DNA of 39,458 bases from a virus, in IMG/VR virus record IMGVR_UViG_3300045988_159199; one strand, given 5' to 3'. Below the pieces are notes generated by a model, which ran no database searches, was not told the origin of the DNA, and saw nothing but the letters and a program-made list of their open reading frames with translations. A program made the position numbers and the translations under genes. Of this stretch, positions 3,682 to 39,458 are shown piece by piece (the stretch's first letter is position 1; the number at the start of each line of letters is the position of its first letter).

Positions 3682-3995
3682 AGCGTTCCACGACATGGCG
3701 AGTACCGTACAGCAGCAACAGCGTTTTGCTTACGCGCATCGGTGATATCTGTTTCATGGGCGGCAACGTGAAATTCAACAATAGCGGGCAGAACAATTAC
3801 ACGACGGCTCAGGAGAAGATCCCCGAAGGGTATCGACCCGTCAGCGTCAATACGCCCGTGGCCGTTTTCGGTGGTGAAACGACATTCATCTGTTACGGCG
3901 AGGCCAATGGCACCGTCACGATGCTCGGCAACCCGAACAGCGCGTATGCGGGATGCACCGGCGTATGGCGCACCACCGACCCCATGCCCGCGTAG
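3672..3995 (+). other. Silent RBP C-terminal cassette 2
   Basis: The frame is open from the TCC of S2 to TAG 3993-3995 (SLTQRSTTWRV...IPEGYRP...GVWRTTDPMPA). Confidence 0.75.
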
Positions 3996-3997
3996 TT

Positions 3998-4008
3998 TTC
4001 CCTAACCC
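3998..4008 (+). repeat. Shufflon crossover site S3 (TTCCCTAACCC)
   Basis: Exact 11-mer, 2 nt after the cassette 2 stop. Confidence 0.8.
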
Positions 4009-8676: not shown

Positions 8677-11600
8677 CAGACTCCTCCTGTTCCCGCGAAC
8701 GCCTTGCCTGCGTAACGGCCCCATGCGAGCGCCTGCTTGCGGGGATCGTCCTGGACGGTGGTGATGTTCTGCGTGATATTGGTTACATTGGTTCGTTGGT
8801 CTCCGCCGTATCCGGCAGTGGCGGTGTCGGTACGTCCGATGGTGGACCGGTAGGCGAGTTCGACGCCGTTGGCGGCGGATTGTGCGCGTTGCATGGCGTC
8901 ATGCACCGCTTTTTCGGCTTTGCCGGCGTTGTCGGTGACGCCTTGGGCGAATGCGGCGGTGATGCTGCGGCCTGAGTAGAGCACCCATCCTCTGCCCGAG
9001 AACGGGCCCTCCTTGGCTGGCGAGAACGGGAACAGGTCTCGGATGGACTGCAGCGCACCGCTGACGGCATCCTTGGCTCCCGATATCGCGCCTTTGATGC
9101 CGGAGATCAGGCCGTCGATGATGGCTTTGCCTGATTGGACCAGCCATTGGCCGGCACCGGACAGCGCGTTGAGCACGGTGTCCCTGATGCCGCCGACGAT
9201 TGAGCCGAGTCCCTTGACCGCGCTGCTGACGATCTGCTTGAACCCGTTCCAGACTTGGCCCCAGTTACCGGAGATGATGCCGGAGACGACGTTCACGATG
9301 CCGGAGATGATGCCGGAGATTGTGCTGAACACGGCCTTGACGGTGCCAACCGCCGAGGTGACGGCCGGTGCCATTGCGCTGAATGCGGGCAGCAGCAGCG
9401 AGTTGATGGCCCATGCCACGAGGTTCGCGACGCTTTGCACGATGGAGCCGAGTTGCTGGATGATGGGCATCACCGCACCGGCGATTTGGGCGACGATTTG
9501 CCCGATCGGTGCGATGATTTCGGCCAGGGCGGCCACGATCTGCATGATGATCGGTATGAGCGCCTGTATCACCGCGTTCAGTGGCGGAAGCAGGGTGGTG
9601 ATCATGCTGAGAATCGGTTGGATCAGCGCGTTGACCACATCCAGCAGCGGCGGCAGCACCGTGGACACGAGGTTGACGATGATCGATGCCACTTGCCCGA
9701 TGACGTTCATCACGGTCGTGATGACCGGCATGAGAGCTTGGATGATGGATGCCAGCGGGGGCAGCAGGCTCGTTATCAGCGTGGTGATGGGCGGGATCAG
9801 CGACTGGATGAGATTCAGCACTGGCGGCAGCACCGTGGACACGAGGTTGACGATGACCGTCACGACCTGGCCTATGGCTTCGCCAATCACCGTGATGACC
9901 GGTGCCATTGCGGAGATGATGGACGACACGGCCGGCAGCAGGTTGGCGATCAGTGTGGTGATGGGCGGCAACAGGGACTGAATCGCGCCCAATACCACAT
10001 TGACGATGTTGGTGATGACCGGCATCAGCGACGAGAACACCTGCATCAGCGGTGTGATGATCTGCGGCACCAGTGGGACCAGCAGGGCCATCACCTCGCT
10101 GATTGCGGACGCTATCGCGGTCAGTGTCTGGCCGATGGCCGGCGCCATCTGGCCGAATCCGGTCAGCAGTGGTTCGACGATTTGCGGGATGACACCTATC
10201 AGTTGCTGGAAGATCGCGCCGACCGAGTTGATGACGGATTCCAACGACCCGATGAGTGAAGGGCCGACATCCTTGAACGCCAAGCTCAGGGTCTTCTTGA
10301 ACGTCTCGAATGCTGGCCCCATGCCGGAGAGCGTGTTCTTCAGATTCTGGAAGAGCGCGGAGAGCTGTGCTCCGAAAGCGGACTTGAGTCGCGGGGTGGT
10401 GGCGATGAGACCGCCGAGGGCGGCCACGGCCACTCCCACGGGTCCACCGATCAGTCCCAGGGAATTTGCCAGACCGCCGAATGCCTCGCCCAGGATCGGG
10501 ATCTTGGTCAGGAGCGGTCCGACACCTCCCAGGCCAAGGGCTCCGAAGGCGGCGGCGACCGGAGCGATGACGCCGCTCATGCCGGAGAGTTTGCCGGTGA
10601 TTCCTCCGGCCCCTTCTCCGAGCTTGGTGAGCCAGCCTGTGACTCGGTCTATGGCGGGGCCGAGCACGTCGCCTATGGCGGAGCCTAGGCCCTTGGCCAT
10701 GTCTTCCATGGGTCCGAGCGCCTTGGTGGCCGCTTGGATGAGAGGGCCGAGCTTGCCGAACACGCCATCGAGCAGGTTCGCGCCGATACGGCCGATGCTG
10801 GCCTTGAGGTTGGCGAACGCGCCTGGCACTGTGGTGCCCATTTCGGTGGCCACGGTGCCCGCTGCGGACGCTGCGGCATCGCTGAAGGTCTGGAAGTCGA
10901 TTTTGCCTTTCGACGCCATCTCGCGCACTTCGTCGGTGGTGACGCCGAGCTTGTCGGCGAGCGCCTGCCAGATTGGCAGTCCTCGATCGGAGAGCTGGTT
11001 GATGTTGTCGGTGTAGGCTTTGCCGGTGGCGGCGACTTTGTTGAAGACCGAGCCGGTTTCTTCCATGGTTCCGCCGGTGGCGGCGGCTACGTTGGCGACG
11101 CCTTTGAGCATCGTTTCGAGTTGTTCGCCGGGTTTGATGCCTGCGGCCACGGCCGATGCGGCGACTGTCGCCGCCTCGCCGAGTCCGAAGCTGGTGCCTT
11201 TGACGCTGGCGGTCGCGTTGGCCATGATAGCGTCGACGCTTTTCGCGTCGTTGCCGAGGCCTCGGAGTTTGGCCGAGGCGGTGTCTATGGCGTTGAGTCG
11301 GCTGAATCCTGCTGTGAGCGCGGTGCCGATGCCGGCGATGCCGACTGTGACGGCTCCGGTGGCGATGCCTTTGACTGCGTTGCCGACGCCTTTGAGCGCG
11401 TTGCCGACCGCTCCCATGGCGCTTGATGCTTTGCTGGCGATGCCTTGGAAGGCTGTGAGGAATGCGTTGCCTACGCCTTTGGCGGCTCCTTGGGCGATGG
11501 GCGCGAGTTTGCCGAACACGGCTTTGGCGGCGGAGCCGATGCCGCCGAGATAATTGCCGACGCTGCTGAATCCTTTGACCACGGTGGATGCGGCGTTGCG

Positions 11601-25206: not shown

Positions 25207-26198
25207 GCGGCCTCGTCCAGTTCGCCCCGGTCGATGGCCTGGCACAGGAGTTCCACGATGCGGGCCGCGTCGGTGCCTTGGGCGAGCAGGCGGGTGACGT
25301 GTGGCAGCCAACGCAGGCGCTCGCCGTCGTCGGGTTGGCGGTTTTTGAGTGGTGTGCTGGTGTCGAGGAGTTTGCGGGCTCGGCGTTCGAGTTCCGTGGC
25401 TTGGTCGGTGGGTGTGGTCGTGGTTTCGGTCGGGGTGCCGATGTTGAGTTCGCGGCCGCGTTTGACCCAGTTGCGCCATGCGGCGTCGAGGTCGTAGGGG
25501 ATTTTTCCGTTGGCGCGGCATGTGTCCTTGAATTTTTCGAGCTCCCAGTCGGGGTCGAGTCCGTAGCCGGCGGCGAGCGCGGTGAGGTCTGGTGTCGGCT
25601 GGTAGAGGGCGAGCGCCTGTTTGCGGGAGTCGAACGTTTGTTCGATGGTTGTTTTTGTTTTTTGCGCGCGCGTACTCTCTCTTGGTGGTTCTAATGATGG
25701 TTCTTTAAGAGATTGGGTGTCATGGGTGACACCCCGTGGCGTCATGGGTGACACCCCGTGATGGTCATGGGTGACACCCCGTGTGGTCATGGGTGACACC
25801 CCGTGGTTGGGTTGCGGGGTGTCATGGGTGCTACCCCGTGAATCTGACGGGGTGTCACTGGTGCTACCCCGTTTTTTCGTGGTTTGCTTGTTCTTACGGT
25901 TTTTGTATTCGACGTGGTTGTGGCCGTCGAGGGTGATGTGGTAGACGTAGGGGCTTCGGTCTGCGCGGTAGCGGGTGCCGTAGTCTTCGTCTCGGGTGAT
26001 GAGCCCGTGGTCTTCGAGGTAGCGCAGGGCTCGTTGCACGGTGCTTGCGCTGGCTTCGCCTTCGGCCATGAGCCGGTCGATGCTTGGCCATGCGCGGTTG
26101 TTCTCGTCCGCGTAGTCGCACAGGATCAACAGGAAGAGTTTGGCGGAGCGGTCGCCGACCTTGATTCTTTTCGCCCGCCCGTACAGCAGTGAGCTCAT
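25203..26198 (-). CDS. Replication initiator / replisome organiser with N-terminal winged-helix domain
   Basis: WPSIDRLMAEGEASASTVQRALRYLEDHGLI. The iteron array lies inside the coding sequence and is translated as GVSPMT/GVTHD repeats. Confidence 0.7.
   Translation of the reverse strand: MSSLLYGRAKRIKVGDRSAKLFLLILCDYADENNRAWPSIDRLMAEGEASASTVQRALRYLEDHGLITRDEDYGTRYRADRSPYVYHITLDGHNHVEYKNRKNKQTTKKRGSTSDTPSDSRGSTHDTPQPNHGVSPMTTRGVTHDHHGVSPMTPRGVTHDTQSLKEPSLEPPRESTRAQKTKTTIEQTFDSRKQALALYQPTPDLTALAAGYGLDPDWELEKFKDTCRANGKIPYDLDAAWRNWVKRGRELNIGTPTETTTTPTDQATELERRARKLLDTSTPLKNRQPDDGERLRWLPHVTRLLAQGTDAARIVELLCQAIDRGELDEAA
25719..25873. repeat. Iteron array (putative phage origin): 4 exact plus 2 variant copies of GTCATGGGTGACACCCCGTG
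   Basis: Exact copies start at 25719, 25741, 25764 and 25786 (22-23 bp period). Variants are at 25821-25840 and 25854-25873. AT-richer flanks lie at 25681-25715 and 25870-25900. Confidence 0.7.
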
Positions 26199-30950: not shown

Positions 30951-31221
30951 CGATGGTCACCCCCTTGGGCAGATAGTCGGCGAGTGTGATGGATGGCAGG
31001 AATCCCGCGTCCGTTTTGGCGTCCATCAGGAGCGCTTTGCCGATCTGGTCGGCGGCGGCGCTGCTCATGCTTCGGACGAAGTCAGGTATGTCTTCGGCCA
31101 GTTGAAGGCTCAGAAGGCTGCTGCCCTGTTCTCCGGCACCGTCGAGGGTGACTCGCGCGATCGGCGCGGTCATGCCCCCGATGCTTACGGTGAAGTCGAA
31201 GATGATAGGTTGGCCACTCAT
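30925..31221 (-). CDS. Hypothetical protein
   Basis: ATG 31221 lies 7 nt after AAGGAGG. The product is 98 aa. A hand count puts about three quarters of codons ending in G or C. Confidence 0.7.
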   Translation of the reverse strand: MSGQPIIFDFTVSIGGMTAPIARVTLDGAGEQGSSLLSLQLAEDIPDFVRSMSSAAADQIGKALLMDAKTDAGFLPSITLADYLPKGVTIDANPKARA

Positions 31222-31262
31222 CACGCCACCTCCTTGGATGCTGTCACCGTAGAATCGTGCCT

Positions 31263-31910
31263 ATGGGTGGTCTGGTTTCCTTCTTGCAGTGGGTTTGGTC
31301 GGGTATCGGTGGTTTGGGTGGATTTGTCGGTCTGCTTGGCGGCGGTTGCGGCGTCTTCGCCTTGTTCCAGACGGGCAAGTCGAATCTGCTCGCGAAGAAG
31401 GCGAACCGTATTGCGCAGGAAGCCAACAGGATCGCCGCTGACGCGAAGGGGGTCGCCGAGGAGGCCAACCGTCTTGCCGGCAAGGCGAACGAGATAAGCG
31501 CAGACGCGAATGCGATCAGCCAGAGGGCGTTGAGCGTTACCGCGGATCAGACGGTCTACAAATGGCGGGGTGAATTCGATGGCGAATCGTCGACCGTCTT
31601 CCTGCTCAACGACTGCCCCCACGAAGCATCTGACGTTCACGTGTTCGTCCGTCACGAAGACCAGACCATCATGGACAGGATCGTCGATAAAGTACCCGCG
31701 TTCGGCGAGATCCCGCTCAAGGACGAGCTGTTCACGCAGAAGGTAGTCGAAGACCAGCGTTCCATCGACAGGCTCAACTCCAGTGCCGGGTTCGTCTACA
31801 TCGGGGTCGGCGGGTATGACGTCACCGTCCATGTCGCCTACACCACTGAGCTCGGGAGCAGACGCAGCAATACGATCAAGCATCGCCTGACCGACGGCCA
31901 ACGCCATTGA
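31263..31910 (+). CDS. Membrane-anchored coiled-coil protein, opposite strand to the early operon (candidate lysogen-expressed exclusion factor)
   Basis: TAGAAT at 31250-31255 ends 7 nt before ATG 31263, giving leaderless geometry. The protein has an N-terminal Gly-rich TM segment, AN(R/E)IA-type repeats and a beta-rich C-domain. Hand-counted GC3 is about 0.77 against about 0.61 for the overlapping minus ORF. Confidence 0.6.
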   Translation: MGGLVSFLQWVWSGIGGLGGFVGLLGGGCGVFALFQTGKSNLLAKKANRIAQEANRIAADAKGVAEEANRLAGKANEISADANAISQRALSVTADQTVYKWRGEFDGESSTVFLLNDCPHEASDVHVFVRHEDQTIMDRIVDKVPAFGEIPLKDELFTQKVVEDQRSIDRLNSSAGFVYIGVGGYDVTVHVAYTTELGSRRSNTIKHRLTDGQRH

Positions 31911-31924
31911 ATCCTTGCTGGACA

Positions 31925-32125
31925 TCATGCCACTCCTCCCAATGAGAGCAGGAAATTGAATACGAGGAACGTGATCACGACCATCACGATGACGAACACG
32001 ATGGGGTGATCATCCAAGAGGCGCATGAACAGAAGGAAGACAGCCACTAATACGGCAACGATTGTCAAGGCCACGACGAACACGGATGCCGTGAACGGCA
32101 ATGTTTCGATGTACTTCTCGACCAT
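31925..32125 (-). CDS. Small membrane protein (66 aa, 2 TM)
   Basis: MVEKYIETLPFTASVFVVALTIVAVLVAVFLLF...IVFVIVMVVITFLVFNFLL. Hand-counted GC3 is about 0.74 against 0.55 for the mirror frame. Confidence 0.65.
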   Translation of the reverse strand: MVEKYIETLPFTASVFVVALTIVAVLVAVFLLFMRLLDDHPIVFVIVMVVITFLVFNFLLSLGGVA

Positions 32126-32214
32126 CACATCTTCTTGTGGTCTGGGGTATCCCTTCGCCGGGCTAGATTGGAAAGCGCCAACCAAGCAACCAGCCCAACG
32201 AAGGGAAGAATGAA

Positions 32215-32487
32215 ATGGAGCCATTGGAAGAACGTTCGAGCAGTGAAACGGTCAGGGACGGGGAACGTCATACGCCATCGTGGTACGTTCACTTCAACGG
32301 ACATCGGCTCGGGCCGGTCTCCGATGCGAAGTTCAAGAAGATGGCGGACACTCTCATGTCCATCGTCAGAGAGGGAAAGCACCACGGGCTCGCGTTCACT
32401 CTTCCTGAGGATGGCCGTGATGTCTGCTGCATCTGGACTCCCGGCGTCCCGATCAGCTTCAAAGAGGCTGACAGTGAATCTGAATGA
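32215..32487 (+). CDS. Hypothetical 90-aa protein (strand assignment uncertain; alternative is minus ORF 32125-32493)
   Basis: AAGGGAAG lies about 9 nt upstream of ATG and TAGATT lies at 32164-32169. Codon choice is better than in the mirror frame (AAG/ATC/TGC against CTT/GAT/GCA). The C-terminal EDGRDVCCIWTPGVPISFKE resembles, from memory, small actinobacterial GR..IW..P..P..F proteins. Confidence 0.45.
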   Translation: MEPLEERSSSETVRDGERHTPSWYVHFNGHRLGPVSDAKFKKMADTLMSIVREGKHHGLAFTLPEDGRDVCCIWTPGVPISFKEADSESE

Positions 32488-32489
32488 CA

Positions 32490-32774
32490 TCACGCCATCT
32501 CGCTTTCGGCGAGCGCTGGAATGGTGTTTTCGGCGGTGTCGAGCTTCTCAGCCATGGCAATGATTGAGGACAGAGGACGATGCGTCACGCCCGCAATGCG
32601 GCGCAGCTCGTCAAAGTTAAAAACACCGACATTGATTTTGCGGTTTAACGTGTTCCGAGGAATTTCTGCCCGATCAGCGAGCATAACTTGTGTCATTCCT
32701 GACTCATTGAGGACCTGCTTTATTGCAATCCCTAAATGCCTGTTTTCAAGCAAATATTGTTTCATATGAGACAT
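32490..32774 (-). CDS. Cro-like XRE-family HTH regulator, first gene of the early (lytic-direction) operon
   Basis: GMTQVMLADRAEIPRNTLNRKIN is an HTH. The gene is divergent from its paralogue, and its first codons (ATGTCTCATATGAAAC) coincide with an operator-like repeat. Confidence 0.8.
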   Translation of the reverse strand: MSHMKQYLLENRHLGIAIKQVLNESGMTQVMLADRAEIPRNTLNRKINVGVFNFDELRRIAGVTHRPLSSIIAMAEKLDTAENTIPALAESEMA

Positions 32775-32864
32775 GATAAAACCAAGATTGCGCTCTTCAA
32801 AACACGGCGTGTCTCATATGAAACAAGAATGCTTCATATGTAAGTAAAATGTCTCACATGCCAA
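32759..32864. promoter_or_regulatory. Operator cluster of the genetic switch: four copies of TGTCTCAYATG(AAAC)-type sites
   Basis: 32759-32773 (gtttcatatgagaca) is the exact reverse complement of 32810-32824 (tgtctcatatgaaac). Weaker copies lie at 32831-32845 and 32850-32864. The region is AT-rich and only 74 bp are non-coding. Confidence 0.6.
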
Positions 32865-33229
32865 CAGGAAAGAAGACCGCGACGATTGAATCAAAGGCGC
32901 TTTCAATCGCAATCAAGAGAGCTATGGCCGTACGTGATTTCAAGACACGATCACTGGCTATCGAATCGGGAGTGCCTTATGGCACCCTCCGACGCATCCT
33001 TGAGCTCAATACAGTCGCCGACTATGAACAACTCAGGAAGATTGCGGGAGCATTGCGCATGCCGCTCTCTTCCATCATCGCCGACGCCGAGCACCTTACA
33101 AAAGACGCAGGGGTCATCGAAGATTACCAAGCTACCGATAACCGAGAAACTTCGAGTGACCATGAGAACATCGACATCGACGCATGGGCCGACCGGATCA
33201 AGGCCGAAGATTCCATACACAATAATTAG
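32849..33229 (+). CDS. CI-like XRE-family HTH repressor (no S24 peptidase domain)
   Basis: LAIESGVPYGTLRRILE is an HTH. It shares IAIK, LR.IAG and PLSSIIA.AE.L with the Cro-like paralogue. It is transcribed toward int and followed by a terminator. Confidence 0.75.
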   Translation: MSHMPTGKKTATIESKALSIAIKRAMAVRDFKTRSLAIESGVPYGTLRRILELNTVADYEQLRKIAGALRMPLSSIIADAEHLTKDAGVIEDYQATDNRETSSDHENIDIDAWADRIKAEDSIHNN

Positions 33230-33258
33230 TAGTCCACAGTCGCCGAATAAACAAAACG

Positions 33259-33286
33259 CCCCGGTCGCTCGTTATGAGCGCCGGGG
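33259..33286. terminator. Bidirectional rho-independent terminator
   Basis: ccccggtcgctc / gagcgccgggg forms the stem (one bulge). TATTTTGT follows on the plus strand and CGTTTTGTTTATT follows on the minus strand. It lies between two convergent genes. Confidence 0.75.
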
Positions 33287-33293
33287 TATTTTG

Positions 33294-34523
33294 TCATATC
33301 TCGTAGGCCTCTATGGTGAGGCTGGTGTAGTAGCGGCTAACGAGTATTTTCAATCGCTTGCCAACAAGTGGCTCAGATGCAAAGTATGCGGCCGTCGACC
33401 GCGCCGTGATTTCCGAGAGCAAGACACCTCCGCTTTTGAGTGCAAAGTGCGGTTTTGCCTGCGATCCTTCCGGCACCGGTAGCTGTTCGACAGTGGCCTC
33501 GAAAGCGATGAACCCTTCGTCGGGAATTCTAGGACCATTCCAGTTGTTCTCCGAGACGCGGAATATTGCCGTTGCGGCGACCACATCCGCTCCATATGCT
33601 TGTCGCTGTTCGTATTCCTTGAGCGAGGCGTTACCAGTTTCGCTTTCCTTCGCCTCTTCCAGCGTTGGCACCATGACGTAGATTTCGGGAACGCCTGTTT
33701 GGTACCATCCTTGGCGCATGGCCACGAGTTCCACATTTTTCGCGCCAGATTCAAGGATTGCACGAATGTGGATTACCGCGATGTGGTTGAAGAGAACGCC
33801 GAACGGTTTCCCTTTGTATTCGACCGCATACCCATCATCCACGCCGCTGCGCCATTGTCTTCCGTTAAGTCGACTTTTCAGCGTTATCGGACGGGTAACA
33901 ACGCTGATTTTTTCGGCACGCCCCTCTTTGAGCTTGAGTATGGGGCGTGGGTCGTAGACGTAGATTGTGGCAGGGTATGAACCGGAGACGGTTTCGGTTT
34001 CCCGAGTCACCGACACTGACAGAATTTTTGGCGGGATGATGATCGGCGACGGCGATATCGTCCTTGACAACGCAGAACTTTGTCCCGTTTCTCGACGAGC
34101 CGACACTAACGCTTCACCATCCTCTACCTCGACGCCGGCGAGCGCAGGCGATGTTTCATCATTGGGCTGTGCATGTCCGTGGTTTGCGCGTCCGTCCCAG
34201 TGACCATTGGCTGCTCGTTTTCGCTCGTGTTCGTTATCCTCGTCCAGCACGATGCTGGGGTCTTTTGCGGCCCTGGCGGCGCGTTGTTCGGCTCGAATCT
34301 TCTCGGGGTCGTGGATCATGTCGCCGACGACCCACAGCATCCATCCGACGAATGCGATGATTAGCGCGATTATGGTGCATGTCAGGAAATCGGTGCTCAA
34401 TCCGCCAACGAAAATCAGCAGGGCGAATATCCATACTCCGATTGCCAGAATCCGGAATATGACCATACCGATGGTTCTGGGCATCGACGCCTTTCGCTTG
34501 GCCTGACGTTTTCCGGGCATCAT
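33294..34523 (-). CDS. Membrane protein, 2 N-terminal TM helices plus about 300-aa domain of unknown function (island gene D)
   Basis: 409-aa ORF with no competing frame. Helices: MVIFRILAIGVWIFALLIFVGGL and FLTCTIIALIIAFVGWMLWVV. It is preceded by the duplicated leader. Confidence 0.8.
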   Translation of the reverse strand: MMPGKRQAKRKASMPRTIGMVIFRILAIGVWIFALLIFVGGLSTDFLTCTIIALIIAFVGWMLWVVGDMIHDPEKIRAEQRAARAAKDPSIVLDEDNEHERKRAANGHWDGRANHGHAQPNDETSPALAGVEVEDGEALVSARRETGQSSALSRTISPSPIIIPPKILSVSVTRETETVSGSYPATIYVYDPRPILKLKEGRAEKISVVTRPITLKSRLNGRQWRSGVDDGYAVEYKGKPFGVLFNHIAVIHIRAILESGAKNVELVAMRQGWYQTGVPEIYVMVPTLEEAKESETGNASLKEYEQRQAYGADVVAATAIFRVSENNWNGPRIPDEGFIAFEATVEQLPVPEGSQAKPHFALKSGGVLLSEITARSTAAYFASEPLVGKRLKILVSRYYTSLTIEAYEI

Positions 34524-34585
34524 GCCTCCAACCTCTTTGTTCGTTCGGCCGACTCGATGCGGCTATGTTTAGATTCTACCGCCGT
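34518..34585 (-). repeat. Leader repeat copy A (68 bp) covering the first two codons, the RBS and a TAGAAT box of gene D
   Basis: It matches 35246-35312 with 2 mismatches and 1 indel. The minus strand reads ACGGCGGTAGAATCTAAACATAGCCGCATCGAGTCGGCCGAACGAACAAAGAGGTTGGAGGCATGATG. Confidence 0.85.
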
Positions 34586-34594
34586 CTTTTGGCA

Positions 34595-35251
34595 TCATTC
34601 CGCCACTTCATCTGCCGACAGGGGTTTCGACCGCCATCGATACGCTGTCACGTTCCTTAAATCATCTATGACTATCCGCGGTCGCAGTTCAGGTCGGCAT
34701 TGCGTTTCTGTATTCCGGTCGAATCGGTCGGCGGCATCACATAGCGCAAGACACAGTTCCTCGACGGATACGACGAGGCTGTACTCCGCGTTTTCCTCGT
34801 CGTCATGTTCCCACGTCTTGCCGAGTTTCGAACTCAGTCCAATACGCAATGAGAACGAGACGTGTTCAAGATTGACGTCATTCCGCATCAGCCTCCCTTG
34901 GTCATCCAACTCGTACAGGTATTTGGTCTCCATATTGGCATCGCCGTTGTGAAGCAGTTCGCAGCGCAGCTTGTAACATGCAAGGGCATCAAAGGCCGGC
35001 ATCGGGTCCTTACCCATTCTTGAGCTAAGGGCATATCCACAGTATTGCCGGTACCAGTCCATGTATCTTTTCCCGACTTTTTTCTCTTCCGGAAAGGCAA
35101 TCTGCCCGTAGGCATCCGGAATTGTGAGCGAAAGAGCTAGGGCGGCGCCATAGCATTCCGCCTGCAGCGTCTTCCTTACCTCATCGGCAAGGCTTATCTC
35201 CATAGGGTTCATCATCTGCGATGCAAGTCTTCTATTCTTCGTCGACATCAT
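34595..35251 (-). CDS. HEPN-like protein (Rx4H motif), predicted RNase/abortive-infection effector (island gene C)
   Basis: The 218-aa product is predicted helical. RCELLH is encoded at 34949-34966 (CGC TGC GAA CTG CTT CAC). An Ala-rich first helix AECYGAALALSLTIPDAYGQ is present. The gene is preceded by leader repeat B. Confidence 0.75.
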   Translation of the reverse strand: MMSTKNRRLASQMMNPMEISLADEVRKTLQAECYGAALALSLTIPDAYGQIAFPEEKKVGKRYMDWYRQYCGYALSSRMGKDPMPAFDALACYKLRCELLHNGDANMETKYLYELDDQGRLMRNDVNLEHVSFSLRIGLSSKLGKTWEHDDEENAEYSLVVSVEELCLALCDAADRFDRNTETQCRPELRPRIVIDDLRNVTAYRWRSKPLSADEVAE

Positions 35252-35312
35252 GCCTCCAACCTCGTTGTTCGTTCGGCCGGCTCGATGCGGCTTGTTTAGA
35301 TTCTACCGCCGT
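35246..35312 (-). repeat. Leader repeat copy B (67 bp) covering the first two codons, the RBS and a TAGAAT box of gene C
   Basis: Near-identical to 34518-34585. Confidence 0.85.
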
Positions 35313-35323
35313 ATATACGGAAT

Positions 35324-35354
35324 CGCCCCGGCCGCTCTTGCGAGCGCCGGGGCG
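35324..35354. other. GC-rich hairpin related in sequence to the 33259-33286 terminator but lacking a U-tract
   Basis: cgccccggccgctc / gagcgccggggcg. It shares the arms CCCCGG.CGCTC and GAGCGCCGGGG with the other hairpin. It lies between gene B and leader copy B. Confidence 0.5.
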
Positions 35355-35369
35355 GCTTCGGAGCATCGG

Positions 35370-36512
35370 TCAGTTGTCCGCTTGCCGAAATGTTTTTGAG
35401 CCGAATCCCATGGAGGCTCCTTGCTCTTTGAGCCCATCCGCCCATTGGTCTAGGAATCGGAATGGCACGTTGAGGCTGTTTTCGGCCTTGAACGTATCTA
35501 TCCCTTTATTTGGGTCGGCCGGGTCTCCGTATCCGGCAACAATCATTTGCTTAAGTAGTATCGGATGCTCGTCACCGACGTGTACAGGCTCCTCTTTTCT
35601 CCATCCTCTCGCGCTAAGTTGGATTTGCAGCGATCGGGTTCTGTCCGCGTCGATTATTCCGAGGTTGCTCGCGCGACTGATCATCGATGATATGGACATG
35701 CCCCATCCTGCTTTGAGTCGCACCAAATCGGTGAGCATGAGGCGCTGTGGCATGATGAGCTTCGCGTCGTTTTGAGGCATGAGCAGAGCACCGGCGAATC
35801 GGTGAGCCTCCCTCTCCATTTCCCGATAGAGCTGGGGTCTGCGGTATCGATGCAGAATTAGGTGTCCGAGCTCGTGTGCGATGGTGAATCTGAGTCTGTC
35901 ACCCGTATTGTTTTTCGCGCTGTATCCGATGGTCGGCATATCCTTGCAGTTCGGTTGCGTCACTCCGTCGCTGTTCAGGTGTGCGGTCTGTTTCGAGGCC
36001 AAGGCATGGAGCGGTGCCACCACGATGCCCATTTTTTCTATGGCGCGCGTGAGATTGGGGACGCTGCCGGATTCATTGAGTCCGAGATGAGTGCGGGTAC
36101 TGTCTGCCAAGCGCTCTATGCGGCTTTGCTCCAGCTCATTTTCTCTTGGAGCTATGGCATCAATCCATGATGTTTTGGGTTGCAGCCTCAGCACCGAGGA
36201 TAGCTTCTGCGCAACCGAGCGGAGCAGAGCATATTCCGCAGCAATGGCGTTTAGTTCTCCGACCGATGCGCTTGACGTATGGCGATACGTCAATTCAACA
36301 ATAGGGACGGGCTGATCCTGGTCGAGGAAAAACGACAACGGGTAGTCGGTCGCCATTGAGATTCTGCGCGCGGCCTCATCGGTGAAATCGATTTGCCGGT
36401 TTTGCAGTTTACTGAGCGTTCCTTGAGCTATGCCGGTTTTTTCCGCGAGCTTTTTCTGGGTCATGCGTTCGACCTGGCGGAGCAGGATGACCCTGTCCGG
36501 ATTATAGTTCAC
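35370..36512 (-). CDS. XRE-family HTH fused to ImmA/IrrE-type zinc metallopeptidase (M78, COG2856-like) (island gene B)
   Basis: The N-terminal HTH reads MTQKKLAEKTGIAQGTLSKLQN. HELGH is encoded at 35862-35876 (CAC GAG CTC GGA CAC) within FTIAHELGHLILH...EREAHRFAGALLMP. Confidence 0.85.
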   Translation of the reverse strand: MNYNPDRVILLRQVERMTQKKLAEKTGIAQGTLSKLQNRQIDFTDEAARRISMATDYPLSFFLDQDQPVPIVELTYRHTSSASVGELNAIAAEYALLRSVAQKLSSVLRLQPKTSWIDAIAPRENELEQSRIERLADSTRTHLGLNESGSVPNLTRAIEKMGIVVAPLHALASKQTAHLNSDGVTQPNCKDMPTIGYSAKNNTGDRLRFTIAHELGHLILHRYRRPQLYREMEREAHRFAGALLMPQNDAKLIMPQRLMLTDLVRLKAGWGMSISSMISRASNLGIIDADRTRSLQIQLSARGWRKEEPVHVGDEHPILLKQMIVAGYGDPADPNKGIDTFKAENSLNVPFRFLDQWADGLKEQGASMGFGSKTFRQADN

Positions 36513-36545
36513 GTCTCTCTCCTTTTGTTTTTACCGCATTGAACT

Positions 36546-37202
36546 CTAGCAACCCACCTTCTCTTCGATTGTCAGGCCCTTCAGAATGTCGATTTCGTCA
36601 TCTGGTTCCGGGTCGAACCCCGGCATCCATCCTCGGCCGCCACCGCCATCCGACATGATGGGGAACGAATACGCCGATTTTCCTTTCGCGCCATACTTTC
36701 CGGGGCTTATCGGCTTATACACGCGCAGGAACGCCGGTTCGGGAAAAAGATAGTCGCAGGCGATGGTGAGCTTGACCTCGCTCAGATCGGGTTGACCAAG
36801 GACGTTGACCATAAGCTGGCCCACACCCTTCGCACCATTCTGGCTGTATCGCGCCCTGCCCGCCAGCGTATGACCGGAACACGGCATACCACGTGTGATG
36901 GGATCAACGGCATGGAAGTAAGAGATTGCACCCGTGGGCGTGTGCATGAGGTGGAAGAATCCCGAATTGTCCACTTCCCACCACCTAACCGGATGAAATT
37001 CTTTCCACTCCTTCGCCATGTTCATGTTGATGAGGTATGCCGCGATTCGCGATTTCTGCCGGTCGCTAAGACGCTTATATGAGGCGAGGTCCTTCTTGAT
37101 GTTTGCGGTGCAGTCTCGAACGAATTCAGGCAGAAACTCGCAGAGCGGACTAAAGGCCTCCATGACCGCCTGCTTCTCATCGATTTTCGCGATATCCGTC
37201 AC
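36546..37202 (-). CDS. Protein of unknown function, first gene of the A-B operon (island gene A)
   Basis: 218-aa ORF with a GTG start at 37202 (an alternative ATG lies 13 codons in). It ends 33 nt upstream of gene B. No motif was recognised. Confidence 0.7.
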   Translation of the reverse strand: MTDIAKIDEKQAVMEAFSPLCEFLPEFVRDCTANIKKDLASYKRLSDRQKSRIAAYLINMNMAKEWKEFHPVRWWEVDNSGFFHLMHTPTGAISYFHAVDPITRGMPCSGHTLAGRARYSQNGAKGVGQLMVNVLGQPDLSEVKLTIACDYLFPEPAFLRVYKPISPGKYGAKGKSAYSFPIMSDGGGGRGWMPGFDPEPDDEIDILKGLTIEEKVGC

Positions 37203-37244
37203 GCCAATGACCTTTCGTTTCCCTTGGATAACTTCTAAAAGAAT

Positions 37245-37263
37245 ATTTTAACACTAGATGTTA
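37245..37263 (-). promoter_or_regulatory. Extended -10 promoter (TGTTAAAAT) for the A-B operon, overlapped by inverted repeat TAACA-N5-TGTTA
   Basis: The minus strand reads agTGtTAAAAT (37253-37245). TAACACTAGATGTTA lies at 37249-37263 in the AT-rich divergent intergenic region. Confidence 0.45.
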
Positions 37264-37352
37264 CTATCAAGGAATAATTCGCCGCCCTTCAGGCACCACC
37301 AGAAATAAAGCCGCTTGCCGCAACGTTCGACCGGCGTGTCGCGACTGCCATC

Positions 37353-37381
37353 TTGTATAACTTACTTAGTTGAGCTATAAT
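37353..37381 (+). promoter_or_regulatory. Near-consensus sigma-70-type promoter TTGTAT-17 bp-TATAAT
   Basis: -35 is at 37353-37358, -10 is at 37376-37381 and the spacer is exactly 17 nt. It lies about 40 nt upstream of the small peptide gene. Confidence 0.6.
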
Positions 37382-37423
37382 TATTATGTAAGCGAAAGCA
37401 GAACAGTGGAAGGAGGTGAGACA

Positions 37424-37573
37424 TGGATGAGATCTGGAAAGCGATAGAAGCCATCGGCTCCCTGCTGGTCGGAATCGCCGCAGTCATCGCGGCGGTGAAA
37501 TCCAAAGGCAACGAGCCACCACCCGCACCGAAGCCCAAGCCGCCGCACATACGGCGAAGGCCTCGCCGGTAGT
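37424..37573 (+). CDS. Small membrane peptide (49 aa): 1 TM plus Pro/Arg-rich tail
   Basis: GGAAGGAGG lies 6 nt upstream of ATG. Sequence: MDEIWKAIEAIGSLLVGIAAVIAAVKSKGNEPPPAPKPKPPHIRRRPRR. It is absent from the ORF track because it is under 60 aa. Confidence 0.6.
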
Positions 37574-37797: not shown

Positions 37798-38021
37798 GCA
37801 CCGCAAGATATCTCAGCCTCAAGGAGGTCGGCGAGCGCATCGGCACGAGCAATCCGGCCGCGAGGGGGTATCATCTGCCGGAACCGGACGCACTGATCGG
37901 CACGACTCGCGGCTGGCTTCCGGAGACAATCGATGCGTGGAACGCCGCCCGCCCCGGTCGTGGTGCGGGCGGCGGAAGGCCGCGCAAGAATCGCAATCAG
38001 GCCGATTCTCCCACCGCCTGA
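37794..38021 (+). CDS. Xis/AlpA-like small HTH DNA-binding protein (candidate excisionase)
   Basis: GGGAGG lies upstream of ATG 37794. Sequence: YLSLKEVGERIGTSNPAARGY..TRGWLPETIDAW, followed by a basic tail. Its 3' end overlaps the integrase 3' end by 25 nt (convergent). Confidence 0.6.
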   Translation: MSTARYLSLKEVGERIGTSNPAARGYHLPEPDALIGTTRGWLPETIDAWNAARPGRGAGGGRPRKNRNQADSPTA

Positions 38022-39238
38022 CGAGCCTTGTCGGCGAGCGCCGCAAGGCTTGCGGCGGACCAGTGGGTGTATCCGGCCGTCGTGCTGATTTTGGCGTGGC
38101 CCATCATCGCTTTTCTCGCGTCTTCCGGGGCTCCGGCTTCGGCGAGGTGCGTGGAGAAGAAGTGGCGGGCGCTGCGGATGGTGACGCAGGGCAATCCGGC
38201 GTCTTCGAGAGAGCGTTTCCAGCGGCGGCGTTCCACGGTGTTGGTGAGCGGGTGTCCCTCGCGCGTGAATATGAGCTGGCCGGGCTGGCATTGCCTGCGT
38301 CCGACGAGCGCCCAGAGTCCGAGCCACGTCTGGTTGCTGACGGGCACGAACCGGTTGCCCTGCTTGCTTTTCGGTTCGACGAGCCAGAAGCATCCCTCGT
38401 AATGGCGGGAGCGGAGCCAGTTGGGCACTTCTGCATCGGATCTGAAGCGTTGGAGCTCCCACATGATCTGGATTCCGTGCACGCCGTCGACGGTGGCGAG
38501 CTCTTCGGGCAGGATGGCGAATCTTTCGGCCTCTCTCATGCCGGTCTCGAACATGATGTTCCACATGAGGCTCCACATTTCGCGGTCGTCGTCGGTATCT
38601 GCCAGGTGGCTGTATTTGCGACGCTTGGGGTCGAGTGCGGCCTGCGCCGCCCGGGCCGGCTGTCCGGGTTCGAGGATTTGGGTGGCCTGCGACTCGTAGC
38701 GCGGCGGCGTTGCGGCGAGCGCCGGGTTCGATGGGATGAGGCGTTCGCGGACCGCTGCGTCGAGCACCTGCCTGAGTCTGAGATAGTGGTTGTGGACGGT
38801 TTTGCTTCGGTGTTCCTTGGCGAGTTTGGCGCACATTCCGTCGATGGTGGCGGGGGTTATTCTGTCGAGTCGCATTCCGCCGATGACGCTGCGGATGGTG
38901 TTGCAGTCGGATCGATAGGTTTCGAGGGTGCGGGGTTTGACATTGGGCGCGATGGTATTGAGCCATCGCTCCATCCATTCGTCGAGCGTTGGGGTTCCGG
39001 CCAGGGGCATATCGCCCTCGCGCTGCAGTCTTTTGATTTTTTCTTGGAGCCGCTGCCGCGCGGCGGTCTTGGTGGGAGCCTGCGCCTCGACCATGCGGCG
39101 TTTGCCGGTGCGCGGGTTTGGTGCGATTTCTTTGCGCGCGTGCCAGGTTCCTCGTTGATCCTGCCATTCGCTGCCGCTTCCCCGCGGCCTGCGTGGAGGT
39201 GTTTTGGACGTCGTTGTTTGGTTCTGTGCGGGCATCAT
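37997..39238 (-). CDS. int: Tyrosine integrase
   Basis: RSARHFFSTHLAEAG and MMGHAKISTTAGYTHW catalytic boxes are present, with an N-terminal SAM-like core-binding region. The gene is adjacent to att/tRNA. Confidence 0.9.
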   Translation of the reverse strand: MMPAQNQTTTSKTPPRRPRGSGSEWQDQRGTWHARKEIAPNPRTGKRRMVEAQAPTKTAARQRLQEKIKRLQREGDMPLAGTPTLDEWMERWLNTIAPNVKPRTLETYRSDCNTIRSVIGGMRLDRITPATIDGMCAKLAKEHRSKTVHNHYLRLRQVLDAAVRERLIPSNPALAATPPRYESQATQILEPGQPARAAQAALDPKRRKYSHLADTDDDREMWSLMWNIMFETGMREAERFAILPEELATVDGVHGIQIMWELQRFRSDAEVPNWLRSRHYEGCFWLVEPKSKQGNRFVPVSNQTWLGLWALVGRRQCQPGQLIFTREGHPLTNTVERRRWKRSLEDAGLPCVTIRSARHFFSTHLAEAGAPEDARKAMMGHAKISTTAGYTHWSAASLAALADKARQAVGESA

Positions 39239-39295: not shown

Positions 39296-39365
39296 CGAGG
39301 TCACAATCAGGCACGTTTGGCCCAAATCTTGCAATCACGATGATTCGGCACCCGAATATGCGAAA

Positions 39366-39401
39366 GGCCGCAAACCCTTGGAATTGCTTGGGTTTGCGGC
39401 C
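39366..39401 (-). terminator. Rho-independent terminator downstream of tRNA-Gly (12-bp stem)
   Basis: ggccgcaaaccc / gggtttgcggcc with a 12-nt loop, followed by TTTCGC on the minus strand. An identical copy lies at 27-62. Confidence 0.65.
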
Positions 39402-39409
39402 TTTGTCAG

Positions 39410-39458
39410 TGGAGCGGATGACGGGAATCGAACCCGCGTAATCAGTTTGGAAGACTGA
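39410..39458 (-). tRNA. tRNA-Gly (anticodon UCC), 3' part only; the 5' half lies beyond the window end
   Basis: The reverse complement reads TCAGT CTTCCAA ACTGA TTAC GCGGG TTCGATT CCCGT CATCCGC T CCA. These are the anticodon arm with UCC, the T arm, the acceptor strand, discriminator U and CCA. Confidence 0.7.

Follow-up and report, generated by a model that had tools for sequence, protein, structure and literature searches.

Hairpin-leader units head accessory gene cassettes in Bifidobacterium longum temperate phages and probably serve both their expression and their exchange

A leader repeated between the integrase and repressor genes

We analyzed a 39,458-nt stretch of viral DNA (IMG/VR record IMGVR_UViG_3300045988_159199; hereafter the window), a prophage or temperate phage of Bifidobacterium longum, focusing on a 68-nt leader that occurs twice between its integrase gene and a repressor-like gene, each time in front of an accessory gene, here called C and D (Table 1). 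Read along the minus strand, the region holds the integrase gene, genes A and B, a hairpin followed by the first leader, C, the second leader, D and a bidirectional terminator, beyond which lies the convergent repressor-like gene.

The initial annotation had described the two leaders as near-identical starts of two unrelated genes, and both parts of that description are borne out. Aligned in their minus-strand orientation, the copies agree at 65 of 68 columns (95.6%), with two substitutions and one single-base indel between them. Each consists of the GGTAGAATC -10-like box, about 42 nt of leader, GAGGTTGGAGG and an ATGATG that supplies codons 1 and 2 of C or D, and the two proteins show no similarity to each other (BLASTP E = 0.6). 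Searches of the 39.5-kb window with sub-patterns of 27 and 18 nt taken from the leader gave exactly two sites for each, where shuffled sequences predict 0.00-0.01, and a leader profile found no third copy within the window. The second copy begins 9 nt past the stop codon of C.

The first leader is preceded by a GC-rich hairpin (-30.5 kcal/mol, z = -3.7), which lies 20 nt 5' of TAGAAT within a single conserved unit and which may act as a terminator or insulator for the upstream operon. It had been proposed to share both arms with the terminator after D, and this is confirmed: the arm pattern CCCCGGCGCTC..GAGCG(G/A)CCGGGG (CCCCGGNNCTC...GAGNNNCCGGGG) is found only at 35326-35352 and at 33259-33286, with 0 occurrences expected, and both sites fold stably, the terminator reaching -30.0 and -29.1 kcal/mol on its two strands (z about -7; -6.9). 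The perfect 12-bp palindrome CCGTATATACGG, located between the hairpin and the -10 box, is confined to units of the hairpin type and is absent from the copy before D and from junctions that carry the leader only; in one variant, TCGTATATGCGA, both outer positions are changed symmetrically.

Table 1. Features of the window discussed in the text
Feature	Position	Strand	Details
Tyrosine integrase	37997-39238		Phage-integrase SAM-like N-terminal domains
Upstream slot, RosmerTA-like pair A and B	35370-37202	-	A, 36546-37202; B, 35370-36512
GC-rich hairpin after gene B	35324-35354	-	13-bp stem with one bulge, GCAA loop
Palindrome CCGTATATACGG	35309-35320		Perfect, 12 bp; read directly; between hairpin and -10 box
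Leader copy 1, before gene C	35246-35312	-	TAGAAT 35300-35305; predicted 5' untranslated region (UTR) of ~42 nt; GAGGTTGGAGG 35253-35263; ATGATG 35246-35251
Cargo gene C	34595-35251	-	218 aa; conserved PD..Y..W..LRCxxLH
Leader copy 2, before gene D	34518-34585	-	TAGAAT 34573-34578; ATGATG 34518-34523; no hairpin
Cargo gene D	33294-34523	-	409 aa; two predicted N-terminal helices, low-confidence linker, conserved C-terminal domain
Bidirectional intrinsic terminator closing the cassette array	33259-33286		A-run on one side, T-run on the other; same hairpin family as 35324-35354
Helix-turn-helix (HTH) gene, repressor-like	32849-33229	+	126 aa; convergent with D; member of cI/cro-like divergent pair
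HTH gene	32490-32774	-	94 aa; member of cI/cro-like divergent pair
Third GTAGAATC box	31249-31256	+	TAGAAT ends 7 nt before ATG 31263 of p217

The unit in related loci and at cassette junctions

Scanning IMG/VR and metagenome contigs for the leader pattern recovered 49 related loci, every one of them from a human gut sample, in which the leader profile recognizes about 80 leader copies belonging to 30 distinct unit sequences. Across these loci the leader precedes at least seven unrelated cargo protein families: D (29 leader copies), C (22), a DEDDh exonuclease with a BRCT domain (9; RNase_T, 4e-38), the 148-aa protein X148 (8), W, a gene behind a diverged leader (7), a lipoprotein followed by a membrane-anchored exonuclease with a transmembrane (TM) segment (3), and the 307-aa protein Z307 followed by a membrane protein (2). 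A search for the leader in front of other cargo, which the initial annotation had suggested as a check, is thus answered in the affirmative.

Most cargo proteins begin with MMP, and the shared unit (ATGATGCC) reaches codon 3. When twelve contexts are aligned, similarity opens at the hairpin and ends at ATGATGCC, whatever the flanks. The hairpin stands 7 nt 5' of the leader in most units that head a first cassette, and a terminator hairpin of the same family recurs at the end of the array, consistent with the earlier suggestion that the hairpin forms part of a portable boundary. Cassettes placed directly after C or X148 (C>D and X148>W) have no hairpin, and there homology opens just before the -10 box.

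Strict and degenerate patterns found no leader in a collection of one representative genome per bacterial species, so none of these representatives carries the unit as a chromosomal motif, and GenBank phage records contained no match either to the 4.1-kb region or to the leader unit. Judging from where it is found, the unit belongs to this phage group rather than to the host chromosome.

The initial annotation had also proposed that C was gained or lost by recombination within the leader, and a direct comparison with a close relative, locus L007, reads in just this way. On its two sides L007 matches the window at 99.7% and 98.6% identity, and between them 728 bp are present in the window alone, corresponding exactly to C and one leader. 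The two alignments overlap on the single leader of L007, which is chimeric, its 5' end resembling copy 1 and its 3' end resembling copy 2; the event may have been either a gain or a loss of C. C is also absent from L009 and L011.

Further traces of recombination are spread along the unit. Seven of ten polymorphisms in the leader accompany C in some copies and D in others, which amounts to a four-gamete pattern, and truncated leader remnants lie beside foreign DNA, ending at positions 42, 55 and 56 of the leader model (position 42 in both L020 and L045). This spread of breakpoints points to general homologous recombination rather than to a fixed site. On a larger scale, three alternative gene sets occupy the upstream slot, namely the RosmerTA-like pair A and B, an M78 peptidase with a 212-aa protein, and a 369-aa protein with a weak, sub-threshold match to the NYN domain. 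At least five cassette arrays accompany them ([C][D], [D], [C][lipoprotein+exonuclease], [X148][W][exonuclease] and [Z307+Z2][exonuclease]), and most combinations of upstream set and array occur. These comparisons provide good support for the leader unit as a recombination joint for accessory cassettes.

Some loci carry pieces of cargo genes. In L010 (3179-3340), a D-like N-terminus (amino acids 4-57, 76-78% identity) lies just 5' of the hairpin and leader, and the same remnant is present in L014, L019, L022, L028, L032, L036, L037, L039, L040 and L044, so that all loci with the 369-aa NYN-like gene have it; the remnant is a scar left by an earlier cassette arrangement. P0039 and L013 (oriented 1336-2376) carry a D-like or other membrane N-terminus joined to a DEDDh exonuclease domain, and such fusions suggest domain shuffling among the cassette genes.

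Possible expression from the unit and competing explanations

C and D had been predicted to be co-regulated through a shared promoter and 5' UTR, and indirect support for this comes from the -10 box, which persists both in the loci recovered here and in more distant prophages. Of 82 copies, 70 retain TAGAAT unchanged. An A-to-T change at position 2 of the box (TTGAAT or TTGAAC) is seen in one exonuclease lineage only, where ATGATA replaces ATGATG and six of the seven copies are frameshifted.

Distant relatives of D extend this comparison. In L051, a prophage of the B. saguini type, D is 61% identical to that of the window in protein and 64% in DNA, and in L052, from another lineage, the values fall to 52% and 58%. 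Their leaders are 73-79% identical to that of the window, and the core formed by TAGAATC and AGCCGCAnCGAGnCGG is nearly intact: upstream of D they read GCTAGAATC...AGCCGCAACGAGCCGGCCG or GTAGAATC...AAGCCGCATCGAGTCGGGCG, followed by GGAGGGCATGATG or GAGGGCATCATG, and a hairpin of the family found in the window closes gene D. The L051-type lineage again places one diverged leader before two cargos, D in L051 and an exonuclease in L055. L056 carries hairpins of the same family with clear T-tracts (2205-2350 and 3850-4000) followed by a different repeated leader (GGGGTAGAGTCATAGAAGGGCCACGAAGACGAGGGCCGCAAC). This leader, with a TAGAGT -10 box and GGGCCACGAAGACGAGGGCC, precedes a 144-aa gene and a D homologue, and its shared part stops before the ribosome-binding site (RBS). 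The association of a terminator hairpin, a -10 box and a conserved leader is therefore recurrent in bifidobacterial prophages. Promoters that consist of a -10 box without a -35 box are usual in Actinobacteria, and genes between integrase and repressor are often expressed from the prophage. Leaderless and -10-driven starts have been documented in a Bifidobacterium species (PMC4782308).

We propose that the hairpin and leader form a composite terminator-promoter-leader unit that probably both expresses accessory cassettes and serves as a homology patch for their exchange. The 68-nt repeat would comprise a -10 promoter (TAGAAT) lacking a recognizable -35 box, a 5' UTR of about 42 nt, a double Shine-Dalgarno sequence and the first two to three codons, and it would head self-contained accessory cassettes between integrase and repressor in a lineage of B. 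longum temperate phages. Together with the GC-rich hairpin that usually stands before the leader, the composite unit would measure about 115 nt, and a T-tract hairpin of the same family would close the array. Each cargo, whether C, D or another, would in this way receive its own identical start of transcription and translation, insulated from the upstream operon. The unit would also act as a homology patch because it is the only sequence common to otherwise unrelated cassettes, and the comparison of loci indicates that homologous recombination at the unit adds, deletes and swaps cassettes between related prophages. For instance, a circle made of C and one leader could recombine with a resident leader before D to give leader-C-leader-D, and the reverse event would produce the arrangement seen in L007.

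Several points weigh against this proposal. The leader is taken to be a promoter, and the hairpin a terminator, on the strength of sequence; a simple sigma-70 consensus scan does not call sites there, with no match to a -35 box in either copy. The U-tract of the hairpin after B is weak, and there is no terminator between C and D, so that D may be read from the promoter of C and the -10 box of copy 2 may go unused. The exonucleases in which the promoter has decayed represent a single lineage and are anecdotal. The block from +3 to +20 is conserved beyond the needs of a promoter alone. Finally, many of the loci come from metagenome contigs of similar samples, with some representing one contig present in two collections, so independent events are fewer than loci.

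The conservation of the +3 to +20 block leads to an alternative that we regard as unlikely, in which the leader is mainly cis-regulatory, either as an operator (at +3 to +20 or in CCGTATATACGG) or as an RNA element, responding to one trans factor, and recombination is incidental. The AGCCGCAnCGAGnCGG block 3' of the predicted start is indeed conserved beyond the divergence of the coding sequences, and a perfect palindrome lies between the hairpin and the -10 box. However, no Rfam family matches the interval 31000-37500 at E ≤ 1, the two leaders fold no better than shuffled sequences (z = -0.99 and -0.15), an alifold consensus of 17 variants reaches -4 kcal/mol with a covariation term of 0.01, and a candidate 5' stem (GCCG/CGGC), evaluated on 13 variants that include distant ones, does no better than shuffles (341/500). 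Lacking an Rfam match, an excess of folding and covariation, a structured RNA element was rejected. The block is thus conserved as sequence, and it is a candidate operator, initial transcribed sequence or RNA stability signal. In addition, no candidate regulator travels with the unit, since RmrA, the M78 proteins and the type of repressor all vary, and copy 2 and several variants do without the palindrome. Binding of the leader by protein B, another possibility raised earlier, is unlikely to be required because the unit occurs in prophages without A and B.

Two known types of operator were also considered and rejected. The resemblance of CGAACGAAC to a LexA/Cheo box is limited to a half-site seen by eye and is broken in the GAGAGAAC variants. 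As for cI/cro operators, the CATATG-type repeats found in the 74-bp gap between the divergent HTH genes (32775-32848) are absent from the leader, which stands beside differing immunity regions.

With a similarly low probability, only the first hairpin and leader would be a promoter, C and D would form one operon, and copy 2 would be a translation-initiation region carried along with its cassette. The lack of a hairpin or terminator between the two genes and the start of copy 2 only 9 nt past the stop codon of C agree with such an operon. Against it, the TAGAAT of copy 2 is intact in all 13 loci with leader variant u0 and in close variants, the leader-only junction before the lipoprotein keeps a -10 box (TAAAAT) though its RBS differs, and homology opens just 5' of the -10 box rather than at the RBS.

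A dedicated site-specific recombination of cassettes, comparable to that at integron attC sites and with the conserved hairpin as the recombinase site, is far less probable. The arms of the hairpin are strongly conserved from one lineage to the next, including lineages with a different leader, and the cassettes do act as discrete units. Yet the breakpoints are scattered, as seen in the L007 chimera, the four-gamete sites across the leader and the truncated remnants; the C>D and X148>W junctions carry the leader without a hairpin; and no recombinase is encoded nearby other than a tyrosine phage integrase of the ordinary kind, which has a 119-nt att repeat of its own. Least credible of all is a simple local duplication devoid of any role, with copy 2 left behind by a single tandem duplication or insertion event in the phage at hand: the window does hold just two copies, as near-identical as a recent event would leave them, but this account fails before a unit that stands in front of at least seven unrelated cargo families in combinatorial arrangements across 49 loci and whose core is conserved where the D protein is only 52-61% identical.

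The composite unit could also be part of something larger, a dedicated and selectable cassette-exchange platform of bifidobacterial temperate phages, in which a common factor binds the +3 to +20 block and either controls the whole set or promotes exchange. We consider this extension doubtful. Under it, the unit would be kept because genes that land behind it are at once expressed from the prophage and can move from phage to phage, possibly in the form of small one-leader, one-gene circles.

Cargo genes, prophage setting and known systems of gene exchange

Cargo C belongs to a large, uncharacterized family with 739 relatives at E ≤ 1e-3, whose invariant columns (L42, P45, D46, Y63, W66, L95, R96 and H101) include an Rx4H motif. 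Its AlphaFold2 (AF2) model is of good quality (pLDDT 88) and has no match in the PDB with E < 0.1, the only hits being non-significant ones to HEPN and AbiV proteins; that C might be a HEPN-like nuclease is thus a hint from the model and not a finding. Against BFVD, the model matches only phage proteins that lack names, and the protein falls into PHROG 18591, a family of unknown function. The named homologues of D come solely from Bifidobacterium, mostly B. longum, and most of its matches are metagenome proteins; its AF2 model (pLDDT 48.5) is too poor for a structure search, and no PHROG family matches it. Neither C nor D has a match in Pfam, PADLOC or NCBIfam. From their position and neighbors, the cargos are candidates for a role in defence or superinfection exclusion. 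Among these neighbors, B matches the PADLOC model of the RosmerTA antitoxin RmrA (E = 1.8e-86) and has the Pfam domains Peptidase_M78 and HTH_3, and A matches the model of the toxin RmrT weakly (E = 0.0042, PADLOC).

The assignment of the window to a prophage or temperate phage of B. longum follows from its end repeats, the tyrosine integrase, the divergent HTH pair and the Bifidobacterium homologues of D. The termini, 1-119 and 39340-39458, are identical direct repeats of 119 nt that are probably the attL and attR of a prophage or else the overlap of a circular contig. They hold a stretch resembling the 3' end of a tRNA (GGGAATCGAACCC) and a 42-nt near-palindrome; ARAGORN found no complete tRNA in them. 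The two HTH proteins of the switch region (32490-33229) are about 39% identical to one another and therefore paralogues. Elsewhere, at least six direct repeats of 22-23 nt (GTCATGGGTGACACCCCGTG) lie within a coding region at 25713-25872 and look like the iterons of a possible replication origin, and a long minus-strand gene contains three diverged tandem repeats of 174 nt (9543-9983, 66-74% identity) and may encode the tape-measure protein.

A third box had been noted in front of the plus-strand gene at 31263. The gene, p217, is real, and what it shares with the leader is the -10 octamer alone, nothing of the leader being found at 31249-31256 beyond that 8-mer; the octamer GTAGAATC occurs four times in the window against 0.47 expected. 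The short distance from TAGAAT to the ATG makes p217 a candidate leaderless transcript. Its frame shows signs of selection, with a GC content at third codon positions of 0.76 and a synonymous to nonsynonymous ratio of 14:12, compared with 4:23 for a 235-aa antisense open reading frame (ORF; 31221-31928, minus strand). The latter was rejected as a gene on the basis of that ratio and of codon-position GC, which mark it as a shadow ORF; it does have ATGA/GTGA overlaps with its neighbors and a good RBS. The product of p217 resembles membrane and coiled-coil proteins. Together with p90, also on the plus strand, p217 lies in a second variable segment, which spans 31231-32487 and separates the cro-like gene from the early operon; the third box sits 19 nt inside it. 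In L002, L008 and L009 a different segment of about 730-750 bp takes the place of 31231-32487, both borders of which share a short gene-junction motif (GGCGTGATG).

The closest precedent for the proposed unit is found in T4-type phages, where promoter-early stem-loops (PeSLs) are composite stem-loop and promoter motifs located between orphan genes (Arbiol et al. 2010, PMC2839356; Comeau et al. 2014, PMC4122927). When PeSLs recombine, with crossovers mapped to the stretch from the -10 box to the ATG, genes are lost, gained or exchanged and mini-circles arise (PMC2839356; PMC4122927), and the authors noted a lack of evidence for such shuffling outside T4-type phages (PMC2839356). The unit described here is similarly a small composite of a predicted stem-loop terminator and promoter repeated among non-essential, mostly orphan genes in a plastic region, and it likewise has a stable stem-loop beside its promoter, here the hairpin after B and a -10 match only. 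In both cases, indels and replacements between close relatives break inside units, also in the part from the -10 box to the ATG, and leave chimeric ones, represented here by the 728-bp indel and the L007 leader, and homologous recombination between units is proposed, possibly by way of a circle of one unit and a gene.

The differences are as marked. PeSLs belong to the hyperplastic regions of lytic T4-like myoviruses, whereas the unit described here lies in the lysogeny interval, between integrase and repressor, of a temperate actinobacterial prophage with a tyrosine integrase and cI/cro-like genes. The early promoter of a PeSL is of the sigma-70 type, with both a -35 and a -10 box and AT-rich sequence upstream; our unit has a -10 box only, with a GC-rich hairpin upstream, and extends over the 5' UTR of about 42 nt, the RBS and the first two to three codons. 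It is present in just two to three copies per genome. Compared by description, the PeSL consensus given in the papers bears no resemblance to it. The promoter and terminator activity of PeSLs and their mini-circles are experimental results, whereas the promoter, terminator and circle considered here are predictions. By analogy, the unit would work like a PeSL and is not a member of the PeSL family.

Other mobile genes share some of these features. Morons, described in lambdoid and other temperate phages by Hendrix and colleagues and summarized in PMC2839356, are single accessory genes, each equipped with a promoter and a terminator and lying where the prophage is expressed. The flanking signals of classical morons are unrelated, and these genes probably arrive by illegitimate recombination. 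C, D and the other cargos resemble morons in having their own predicted signals and in being present or absent among related prophages, and differ in that all cassettes share one homologous signal unit, which itself carries the breakpoints. Integron cassettes, too, are discrete single genes arranged in arrays and exchanged between elements; unlike the cassettes described here, they are promoterless, carry attC downstream and need IntI and attI, whereas the repeat of the window lies upstream with a -10 box and RBS, has scattered breakpoints and is accompanied by no integron integrase. The actinobacteriophages with variable genes between integrase and repressor are not known to us to have a promoter-leader unit that is repeated and shared among those genes. 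Such genes, expressed in lysogeny and linked to prophage-mediated defence, occupy the same position as the cassettes (PMC6426596; PMC6426606). The lysogenic genes of these phages are also similar in content (PMC6426596; PMC6426606), the loci described here carrying a RosmerTA-like pair of a known defence type, membrane proteins and nucleases.

If the composite unit acts as proposed, the use of conserved regulatory cassettes as vehicles for gene shuffling would extend from lytic T4-type phages to the temperate prophages of an infant-gut commensal. The hairpin and GGTAGAATC leader would provide a sequence handle for accessory genes expressed from prophages in bifidobacteria, one that picks out the Rx4H family of C, the membrane protein D and DEDDh exonucleases beside a RosmerTA-like pair, all of them candidates for superinfection exclusion or defence. 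The unit is also a compact natural promoter and RBS module and, as such, a candidate expression tool for Bifidobacterium. Should the exchange platform exist, every gene behind the unit would become a candidate for lysogenic conversion or anti-phage activity through "guilt by leader."

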